A stretch of 64,000 nucleotides of DNA from an uncultured Chloroflexia bacterium (lineage in GTDB: Bacteria > Chloroflexota > Limnocylindria > Limnocylindrales > CSP1-4): the NCBI GenBank assembly GCA_963728745.1, contig CAVSKY010000006.1, forward strand, positions 197,323-261,322, given 5' to 3'. The translations under genes and the position numbers were made by a program. The notes under the pieces are model-generated. The model did no database searches and was not told where the DNA came from. It worked only from the letters and a program-made list of their open reading frames with translations. This document shows positions 60,363-62,825 of this stretch, piece after piece; within the stretch, counting starts at the first letter, position 1; each line of letters starts with the position of its first letter.

Positions 60363-62174
60363 TCAGCCCTCGTCCATGCGGAGCATCGCCAGGAACGCCT
60401 CCTGCGGGATCTCGACCGACCCCACGCGCTTCATGCGCTGCTTCCCCTCTTTCTGTTTCTCGAGCAGCTTCCGTTTGCGCGTGATGTCGCCACCGTAACA
60501 CTTGGCCAACACGTTCTTGCGCATGGCGCGGACGGATTCCCTCGCGATGACGTTGCTGCCGATGGCGGCCTGGATCGGGATCTCGAACATCTGGCGGGGG
60601 ATCAGCTCTTTGAGCCGCTCGGTGAGGGCACGACCCGTCGACTGGGCCCGGTCACGGTGGACGATGAGGCTCAGCGCGTCGACCGGCTCGCCGTTCACGA
60701 GGATGTCGACCTTGGCGAGGTTGGCCGGTCGATATCCCAGCTCCTCGTAGTCCATCGAGGCATAACCCTGTGTGCGGCTCTTGAGCTGGTCGAAGTAATC
60801 GACGATGAGCTCCGCGAGCGGCATCTCGAAGTGGAGCACGACCCGCGTCGGGTCCAGGTACTCCATGTTGTCGAACGTCCCGCGGCGGTTGGTCGAGAGC
60901 TCCATGATCGAGCCGATGTACTGGCTCGGCGAGACGACGCTGAGCTTGACCCACGGCTCCTCGATCGTTTCGATGTCGGACGGGTTCGGGAGCAGCGCCG
61001 GGTTGTCGACGACGACGGTGCCGCGTCCCAGCAGGAGCTGTACGTGGTACTCGACTGACGGCGCGGAGGCGATGAGATCGAGGTCGAACTCGCGCTCGAG
61101 GCGCTCCTGGACGATCTCCATGTGGAGCAGACCGAGGAATCCGCAGCGGAATCCGAACCCGAGTGCGACCGAACTCTCCGGCTCGAAGGTGAAGCTCGCG
61201 TCGTTGAGGTGCAGCTTGTCGAGCGCCTCGCGGAGCAGCGGGTAGTCCTCGCCGCTGACCGGGTAGATGCCGGCGAAGACGAGGCTCTTTGCGGCCTGGT
61301 AGCCGGGCAGTGGCTCCTTCGCCGGACGCGCCTGGGTCGTGACGGTGTCACCGACCTGCGCCTCGCGGACGTTCTTGAGACCGGTCGCGACGTAGCCGAC
61401 CTCGCCGGCGCTCAGCTGCTTGACCGGGACGAGCTGCGGGCGGAAGACCCCGAGCTCCAACGGTTCGGCCGTCGCGCCGCTTGCCATCAGGCGGATGGGG
61501 TCCGTGGTCTTGAGCGTGCCCTGCTCGAGTCGGACGTAGACGATGACGCCCTTGTAGGCGTCGTAGTGGCTGTCGAAGATCAGGCCCTGGACCGGCGCGG
61601 CTGGATCCCCGGCCGGCGCGGGGATCCGTTCGACGATCGCCTCCAGGATGTCACTGACGCCGGTGCCTTCCTTGGCGCTGGCGAGGATCACCTCTTCGCG
61701 CGGGATGGCGAGCACGTTCTCGAGCTCGTCGATGATCGTGTCAGGGTCGGCCGACGGCAGGTCGATCTTGTTGAGGACCGGGATGAGCGTCAGGTTCTCG
61801 CGCAGCGCGAGGTGGACGTTGGCGAGGGTCTGGGCCTCGATGCCCTGCGTGGCGTCGACGACGAGGATCGCGCCCTCGCAGGCCTGCAGGCTGTGGCTGA
61901 CCTCGTAGGCGAAGTCGACGTGACCAGGCGTATCGATGAGGTTCAGCCCGTACACCTGACCGTCCTTTGCGCTGTACTCGAGCCGGACTGCACGGGCTTT
62001 GATCGTGATGCCCTTTTCGCGCTCGAGATCCATCGAATCGAGGACCTGGCTCGTCATCTGCCGGGCGTCGATCGTGTGCGTCAACTCGAGCAGCCGATCC
62101 GCCAGGGTCGACTTCCCATGATCGATGTGGGCGATGATCGAAAAGTTGCGCAGCCGTTCCTGGGGGATGGTCAC
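60363..62174 (-). CDS. lepA: Elongation factor 4
   Basis: [40 protein letters not shown]. Confidence 0.99.
62155..62174. repeat. Direct repeat copy 1 (first codons of lepA)
   Basis: CGTTCCTGGGGGATGGTCAC, identical to 62695-62714. Confidence 0.9.
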
Positions 62175-62233
62175 CGTGGGGGAGTCTATCGGAGCCCAGC
62201 CGCCCCCCCGGCACCCATCATTCGACGGAGCAC

Positions 62234-62590
62234 TCAGGTCGGCGCAAGCACGCCGGTGACGCGGGCGATGCGTCCGTCGGCAGTGAACTCGATGACATCA
62301 CTACCAGAGAACCCCTCCGGCGGGTCGCCACCCTCCTGTGTCCAGGTGACGCCCATTCGACCGCTCAGCATCCTCGGGGTGCTGGTCTCCCACACCCGGA
62401 AGCCGGGCAACGTCTCGTGCGTGGCCGCGATCATTGCGGCGACTGCCGCACGCCCGACGACGCCATCCGGCACCTCGTCGTCAGCGTAGACGCCGTCCTC
62501 CGCCCAACACTCCTCCAGCAGAGCCAAGGTGTGCTCCGGCTCGTTCCAGGCGCGCGCATACAGCTCGTAGGTGTCCTCGGGTCGACGCAT
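62234..62590 (-). CDS. SnoaL/NTF2-like protein
   Basis: [43 protein letters not shown]. Confidence 0.85.
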
Positions 62591-62694
62591 CTGTCACTCC
62601 TCGGTTCGTGGTCGAGACCCGGTCTCTACCGCGAGGCGCTCCACACCTCCTGCGGGAGGGTAAGCATCTACCTCCTGATGATGGGCACGAACAG

Positions 62695-62714
62695 CGTTCC
62701 TGGGGGATGGTCAC
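62695..62714. repeat. Direct repeat copy 2 (orphan lepA start)
   Basis: Same 20-mer, 540 bp away; similarity continues through the -10 box (TACACT vs TAGACT). Confidence 0.9.
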
Positions 62715-62825
62715 GAGGGCGGAGTGTAGCGGCTCCTGTGGTAGCATCCGCCTCCGCGTGCGGCGCTCATCCCGTGCTCGCGCGTGGCATCCAACCCATC
62801 ACATCGACGATCCGAGAGGTTTCCC

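Follow-up and report, generated by a model that had tools for sequence, protein, structure and literature searches.

A candidate integrase-free recombination hotspot between lepA and rpsT, with gene cassettes delimited by duplicated lepA promoter-start modules

Results

The lepA start region and the inserted cassette

The window analysed here is a 64,000-nucleotide stretch of DNA from an uncultured Chloroflexia bacterium (GenBank assembly GCA_963728745.1, contig CAVSKY010000006.1, forward-strand positions 197,323 to 261,322; genome G000 in our comparisons). It carries the working copy of lepA, the gene for elongation factor 4 (EF4; 60363–62174, minus strand, 603 amino acids, GTG start, N-terminus MTIPQER, with the Pfam domains GTP_EFTU, LepA_C and EFG_C), and the subject of this work is a 540-bp cassette located between the start of lepA and rpsT, the gene for ribosomal protein S20. 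The 20-mer CGTTCCTGGGGGATGGTCAC, covering the first 20 nt of lepA, lies at 62155–62174 and is repeated at 62695–62714, a spacing of 540 bp. With up to three mismatches allowed, these are the two matches in the window, against none in each of 100 shuffles; with up to two mismatches, the whole genome (3,418,850 bases, 10 contigs) gives the same two matches and none on the reverse strand. As the 20-mer occurs only twice in G000, it is not a dispersed genome-wide repeat, a possibility raised in the initial annotation of the window. The pair grows in a repeat search to 38 nt at 84% identity, still at a spacing of 540, and each copy has a −10-like hexamer on the minus strand 8 nt from its own GTG: TAGACT (AGTCTA, 62183–62188) at lepA and TACACT (AGTGTA, 62723–62728) at the distant copy. 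The spacing, the hexamers and the partial similarity of the flanks beyond the 20-mer had all been described in the initial annotation, and the sequence and the repeat searches agree with that description.

The 38 nt of the rpsT-side copy (62695–62732) are identical to the single copy in G021, the nearest relative with an empty site, and this copy is therefore the native lepA promoter and start, as had been supposed. It follows that the insert brought the 18 nt now preceding the working lepA and thus rebuilt the lepA start region, again in line with the earlier proposal. The repeat copy adjoining lepA (62155–62192, minus strand) consists of the first 20 nt of the working gene and these 18 nt, which differ from the native sequence at six positions and include the hybrid hexamer TAGACT as a putative −10 element. 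The relic of the old lepA 5′ end (62677–62714, minus strand) is made up of GATGATGGGCACGAACAG followed by the exact 20-mer; it is detected by nhmmer at E 1.4e-09, belongs to the class that we call type A (described below), and in alignments has a 9-nt deletion relative to the relic of a separate species genome, G140. Next to it is the native lepA promoter region (62715–62732, minus strand), whose TACACT is now upstream of a SnoaL gene. Judged from the sequence, the whole relic is the segment 62677–62732, in which native promoter, GTG and first lepA codons now face the SnoaL_2 gene.

That gene (62234–62590, minus strand) encodes an NTF2-like protein of 118 amino acids and has GAGGAG 7 nt before its ATG. 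The product matches Pfam SnoaL_2 (PF12680) at E 7.4e-10 and 39.8 bits (cutoff 27) over profile positions 4–102 of 102, and the GC content by codon position is 0.68/0.54/0.82. Homologues occur in 12 of 100 other genomes of the genus at amino acid identities of 63–78% (one at 43%), and a search of G000 at E up to 1e-5 found no second copy. As the initial annotation had it, the SnoaL_2 open reading frame (ORF) is accompanied between the repeats by an ORF that begins at the relic GTG and has no Pfam family. This relic ORF (62481–62714, minus strand, 77 codons) is out of frame with the SnoaL gene and overlaps its start; its 88-amino-acid version likewise matched no Pfam family, and in the window it is probably a by-product.

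The insert also holds traces of an earlier occupant. On the plus strand, 62624–62694 is a probable 3′ remnant of a DinB_2-like cargo gene, matched in tblastn by residues 131–158 of the G097 protein. The remnant lies beside the relic at the same place in G000, G140 and G072, with E values of 0.026, 0.020 and 0.008, respectively, which are weak for a small database; the 163-residue gene is intact in G097, G139 and G108. In G101, the 18 nt upstream of lepA are the same, as far as GAGT, as a native promoter variant found in other species, after which they read CTATCGG; the CTATCG stretch is also found 3′ of a SnoaL homologue at an unrelated locus in G082, and the GAGT part of the hexamer region matches native lepA promoters. 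We therefore regard TAGACT as a hybrid formed at the junction, with GAGT from the native-like side and CTATCG from the SnoaL 3′ flank. In our reading, the SnoaL gene would have overwritten most of an older cassette while leaving the type-A relic in place. The same cassette, remnant and relic are present in G140, at 92.5–93.8% identity to the cassette of the window, and eroded forms of it occur in G101, G072, G049, G139, G097 and G194, none with element genes.

Empty sites and sequencing support

Single-copy empty sites with 110–112 nt between lepA and rpsT are found in four related species of the genus (G021, with 111 nt, G050, G070 and G092), and both genomes examined from the sister genus, used as outgroup, have 127 nt. 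In addition, the public run X5 contains a contig of 408 nt in which 62154 is followed immediately by 62695. On its rpsT side, this contig differs from G000 at 8 positions over 375 nt (approximately 98% identity), whereas the rpsT of G140 is 92.4% identical to that of G000. The empty-site contig is thus nearer to G000 than the cassette-bearing G140 is, and close relatives differ in whether they have the cassette. Deletion between the two repeats would leave precisely the empty form. The initial annotation had taken the 540 bp for an insertion, to be checked against relatives with a single 20-mer; the four genus genomes carry such sites and, together with the X5 contig, bear the claim out.

Short contigs from soil metagenomes match the SnoaL region without difference, and one of them bridges the junction of lepA and insert (62129–62309). 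These contigs came from four runs, none of them spans 62515–62678, and, since the source sample may be among the runs that match, they do not count as independent proof. Most of the public runs with pieces of the stretch are metagenomes of soil, rhizosphere or roots.

The lepA–rpsT interval in relatives

We compared the lepA–rpsT region in 83 genomes of the genus and two of the sister genus, and later in four further genus genomes (87 of the genus). The 78 genus intervals measured are between 110 and 7086 nt long (median 1195). The commonest layout is lepA, promoter, a gene for an EamA transporter and rpsT; EamA is the sole called ORF in 19 genomes, and 23 intervals fall between 1000 and 1210 nt. 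The cargo as a whole covers more than 20 Pfam families between the same fixed core genes. It includes SnoaL_2, Cupin_2, DMP19, DinB/DinB_2, isochorismatase, GNAT, PrmA-like methyltransferase, Polyketide_cyc2 and SRPBCC proteins, as well as MarC, SfLAP, metallo-beta-lactamase fold, PIN, UvrA-like ABC proteins and large adenylate-cyclase/AAA16/TPR proteins, and 27 array ORFs are without any family. None of the 118 array ORFs called in the 83 genus genomes belongs to an integrase, transposase or resolvase family at E up to 1e-4, the ORFs having been called by a codon-position GC rule that is heuristic and incomplete. Variable lepA–rpsT adjacency was found in about 49 genera of the family.

An indication that whole cassettes move comes from G045 and G012, whose cupin cassettes share 93% identity, against 84.6% for the lepA 5′ parts of the two genomes. 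A tree of the lepA 5′ region points the same way, with scattered cargo types and well-supported branches that force at least two origins for several of them; with 248 columns the tree is too short to decide the mechanism. The suggestion that the site is a hotspot of cassette exchange has held up well, as relatives have different cargo and several relic repeats at the same position.

Relics of the lepA start

An nhmmer profile made from working lepA starts (33 coding and 27 upstream nt) matched all 85 of them. In 18 of the 83 genus genomes it gave 20 further matches (E up to 2.4e-3), all in direct orientation; the best reverse-strand match has an E value of 0.67. Relics in four more genomes (G121, with two, G066, G120 and G041) bring the number to 22 of the 87. 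They occupy the old start site, about 20 nt from the EamA stop codon and mostly 540–614 nt from the working start, and three genomes (G097, G002 and G121) have arrays with two relics. Relics are also present in the other genera g32, g34 and g46 (genomes G178, G211 and G190), and in G194, of a fourth other genus, a SnoaL gene directly adjoins lepA.

Seventeen relics in 14 genus genomes, the window's included, are of type A, that is, they retain lepA from nt 1 to about nt 44 with a common insertion of approximately 8 nt (typically GATGATCGAACTGGACAGAAGCGCAGGCG, compared to GATGATCGAGAAGTTGCGCAGGCG in the working gene). The same type occurs in G178 and G211. A search of metagenome contigs with the type-A pattern found four, all of them lepA/rpsT loci; lepA lies within a few hundred nucleotides in three and rpsT in three, and the fourth (L138) starts at the relic and has rpsT about 2 kb away. 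We note that metagenome contig L141 (approximately 3960–4200) has a type-A relic only 170–190 nt or so from the working lepA start, which makes this cassette the smallest seen and shorter than the usual cargo gene.

The length of lepA kept in relics varies from about 10 to 102 nt, in at least five length classes. At the upper end, G060 (L101, G060:C1, 174–295 and 4813–4934) has an exact direct repeat of 122 bp, made up of 102 nt of lepA and 20 nt upstream, around a 4.5-kb insert with a metallo-beta-lactamase-fold gene, a cyclase fragment and a TPR protein. The sequence suggests another, recent event of this kind that has a different boundary; a second identical copy of the insert was not found in G060 itself, where paralogues are only 69–74% identical. 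One relic of G002 keeps at least 47 nt of lepA and lacks the insertion of about 8 nt, while about 6–25 nt are kept in six relics (G008, G119, G048, G019, G133 and G042). The junctions on the lepA side vary with the type of cassette, giving different LepA N-termini and start codons.

Among 131 genomes of the genus, the core motif of the relics is essentially confined to lepA, bar a few mismatched matches elsewhere. We examined these off-locus matches (1–3 mismatches; for example, in G024:C3 and G070:C2) and took them as chance, their flanks being coding-like and without relic arm or promoter. Viral contigs gave no match to the core motif. RNAalifold predicted no base pairs for 18 relics, and DNA folding of 62640–62745 gave no structure (z = 0.61).

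Some unusual arrangements at the lepA start were also observed. The G118 assembly, with 7% contamination, has two lepA 5′ ends on one contig (G118:C162:14775–15414) that point towards each other across about 60 nt, possibly an assembly artefact or an inverted duplication. In G124 (C175 and C188) and G146 (C21 and C82), contigs end exactly at the lepA start, which would fit a repeat at that point breaking the assembly.

Promoter-start modules and cargo expression

In the genus, a TANNNT hexamer is located 6–9 nt before 63 of 71 working lepA starts, and in 59 of the 71 it is TACACT at exactly 8 nt. No Shine-Dalgarno sequence was found before the working starts. A hexamer placed at the start together with the lack of a Shine-Dalgarno sequence indicates that lepA is likely to be leaderless; we infer both promoter activity and leaderless translation from this arrangement. 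As read from the alignment, TANNNT at the right spacing is kept in 21 of 25 relics.

Several genomes appear to put the old start to use. In G098 and G045, the relic opens a micro-ORF (13 and 32 amino acids, respectively) that ends in a 4-nt overlap with the start codon of the cargo. Four genomes (G133, G019, G048 and G119) have in-frame fusions of the cargo to the lepA start; in G133 (L083, G133:C9, approximately 320–860) the partner is a DMP19-like gene, a family of DNA mimics, which opens at a relic lepA start in frame with the first three lepA codons, and G042 has a decayed version of this fusion. At the other end, in G119 and the cupin cassettes, the cargo stop codon overlaps the GTG of the working lepA.

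In the window, the out-of-frame overlap leaves no evident coupling of the relic ORF to the SnoaL gene. We suggest that the native promoter probably transcribes the SnoaL gene, which would fit the geometry, and that lepA may be served by the hybrid −10 hexamer at the junction and probably also by read-through. A scan of 62050–62900 for promoters and terminators of the Escherichia coli type found nothing, but such a scan requires a −35 box and is uninformative on leaderless promoters with only a −10 element.

Neighbouring genes

The other edge of the hotspot is rpsT (62826–63458, plus strand), with a probable TTG start after GAGAGG and a match to Pfam Ribosomal_S20p at E 1.9e-18. The Pfam domain covers residues 25–108 of the 224-residue ORF, and an Ala/Lys-rich C-terminal tail of about 110 amino acids extends beyond it. 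At 63479–63508, 21 nt past the rpsT stop codon, a perfect 12-nt inverted repeat (CGGCGTCCCGGG and CCCGGGACGCCG, 6 nt apart) is probably the stem of the rpsT terminator, although no T run follows it. Downstream of lepA, 58349–60354 holds a gene for an Rce1-like membrane protein of the CAAX protease family and a HemN/HemW-type radical SAM gene, both ordinary neighbours.

Discussion

The observed anatomy, empty sites and arrays and the restriction of the relics to one locus lead us to infer a recombination pathway, and we think it fairly probable that this family of soil bacteria, probably Chloroflexota of the class Candidatus Limnocylindria, has in the lepA–rpsT interval a recombination hotspot that works without an integrase. 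Genes would enter at, or a few codons inside, the leaderless lepA start, and the insertions that survive would be those that bring or duplicate a promoter-plus-start module, so that lepA keeps working and the displaced old module is left as a relic. Once duplicated, the leaderless module could both express the cargo and offer short homology. Since relics and working start form direct repeats adjoining a highly conserved gene, ordinary recombination can add, swap or delete cassettes. In adding one, lepA would serve as the long anchor and the relic core as the short second homology; swapping would use the same anchor and relic-core homology, and precise deletion between the repeats would yield the empty-site alleles. 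The source of new cargo would be illegitimate joining, in which an older cassette is partly overwritten. An account that needs no dedicated recombination enzyme seems to us the simplest for these sequences, and it agrees with hotspots lacking mobile elements (PMC5635113) and with homology-assisted illegitimate recombination (summarised in PMC2884548).

Several observations weigh against this explanation. The 17 type-A relics of the genus and the two from other genera share the insertion of about 8 nt and the boundary near nt 44 beside at least eight different cargo genes, and such a conserved end would look like an attachment arm borne by an element. Relics are well conserved across genera although they are mostly non-coding. 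G133 and G095 have near-identical lepA 5′ ends and yet are one cassette apart, which needs a crossover within the first tens of nucleotides or a precise deletion. The homologies of 20–44 nt are at the lower limit for E. coli RecA, whose threshold is placed near 30 bp in PMC2884548. Finally, the heuristic and incomplete gene calls may have missed a recombinase, and the screen was confined to ORFs of the arrays.

Because the type-A arm is conserved across cargo and genera, a recombinase acting in trans has to be considered as a rival. On that explanation, which we regard as rather unlikely, the cassettes would be small non-autonomous integrative elements moved by a site-specific recombinase encoded elsewhere; this enzyme would recognise the first 25–45 nt of lepA, and every cassette would bring along its own attachment arm (type A) together with a new lepA start. 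The arm has the same boundary beside many cargo genes in several genera, every relic is in direct orientation, the arrays of G049, G097, G002 and G121 resemble serial integration at one end, a precise empty-site allele exists, and G000 does encode three tyrosine recombinases (PF00589). Those three genes, however, are on contig C1 and not on C6, and the 118 array ORFs contain no recombinase. Nor are the variable lepA-side junctions, the length classes of the relics, their lack of conserved structure and the remnants of older cargo inside cassettes what such an enzyme would be expected to leave, and no off-locus copy resembling attP was seen in the 131 genus genomes, the viral contigs or the metagenome contigs. 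For the same reasons (no recombinase among the array ORFs, variable relic lengths and junctions, unstructured relics and a motif not found away from the locus) the view in the initial annotation that the repeats are an att-like scar of a site-specific element is not supported. A bolder version would make the locus a family-wide integron-like system, assembled from other parts than an integron and with a dedicated recombinase, in which the lepA promoter/start module of about 70 bp is attachment site and expression signal in one; we consider this doubtful, and equally so the corollary that single-gene cassettes with a type-A lepA mimic are captured, stacked and released at the lepA start.

A replication error could also duplicate the lepA start. 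Here a fork broken at the strongly transcribed lepA/rpsT promoters would switch template by microhomology and copy foreign or distant DNA, and its return behind the break would duplicate a variable length of the lepA start, the product later spreading by ordinary recombination. The varied duplication lengths, including the exact 122-bp repeat of G060, the hybrid SnoaL junction at a short common GAGT and the recurrence of events at one locus are consistent with this, but we judge it improbable, because the insert of G060 has only paralogues of 69–74% in its own genome, G000 has no second SnoaL copy and the common type-A arm is left unexplained. It is very improbable that the 540 bp of the window are a decayed remnant of a larger element that lost its integrase, with no connection to the variation in relatives: direct repeats around a single gene and an empty site would suit such a remnant, yet the same cassette stands in G140 and eroded forms in six other genomes, all without element genes, and none of the 87 genus genomes examined has an integrase-bearing element between the same repeats. 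An assembly artefact, in which a chimeric join was made at the 20-nt repeat, is scarcely credible. G000 is indeed a metagenome-type assembly in 10 contigs, but the independent species genome G140 has the same structure, and short-read contigs match the insert exactly, one of them across the lepA-side junction.

According to PMC5635113, many hotspots of horizontal gene transfer are without recognisable genes of mobile elements, and their origin and turnover are still open. The lepA locus offers a sequence-level picture of one such hotspot, in which duplicated promoter-start modules of a core gene mark the limits of the cassettes and the intermediates are visible as empty sites, stacked cassettes, eroded relics and overwritten cargo, family-wide in uncultured soil bacteria. 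It suggests that a leaderless promoter and start can be reused for acquired genes, by in-frame fusion or by coupling to a relic micro-ORF, with the host gene left intact. It also makes the competing mechanisms testable, RecA-type recombination on repeats of 20–45 nt on the one hand and a hidden site-specific enzyme on the other. What is unusual, and well documented, is that duplicated leaderless promoter-start modules form the cassette borders and apparently also drive expression of the cassettes.

Integrative elements at gene ends include islands at tRNA 3′ ends, SXT at prfC, cis-mobilizable elements that grow by accretion and, reportedly, Gifsy-1 at lepA; SXT and Gifsy-1 were the parallels named in the initial annotation. 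The lepA locus resembles them in its direct target repeats, the supply of a new gene end, accretion that leaves partial copies of the target, and empty sites. It differs in that no integrase was found in or beside the arrays, the units are only 0.2–1 kb with one gene, and the boundaries of the repeats vary between relic classes. Integrons and integrase-less attC clusters are arrays of small genes with attC sites that form imperfect hairpins, the integron integrase being encoded with attI. In these arrays, as at the lepA locus, the units are mostly single small genes in either orientation, added at one end by a promoter, with a short recurring site. At the lepA locus, in contrast, there are no attC-like hairpins, integron integrase or attI, the array is flanked by lepA and rpsT, and the recurring site duplicates the start of a housekeeping gene and brings its own promoter.

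Another comparison is with homology-facilitated illegitimate recombination (de Vries and Wackernagel 2002; Prudhomme et al. 2002; Meier and Wackernagel 2003), as summarised in PMC2884548. The lepA locus would share with it one long anchor (lepA), a short or illegitimate join at the other end, replacement or addition of DNA, and junctions specific to each event; that process was shown in naturally competent laboratory species, however, and repeated reuse of one class of relic is not part of the description given there. Hotspots between core genes that lack integrase and transposase and show rapid turnover of unrelated cargo were reported in 2017 (PMC5635113, in the part drawn on here). As in those hotspots, the same two core genes bound the lepA interval, the cargo turns over and no mobility proteins were found, within the limits of incomplete gene calls. 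Unlike what is described there, the borders at lepA are duplicates of the promoter and start of the flanking gene, which apparently drive the cargo and could be used as homology.

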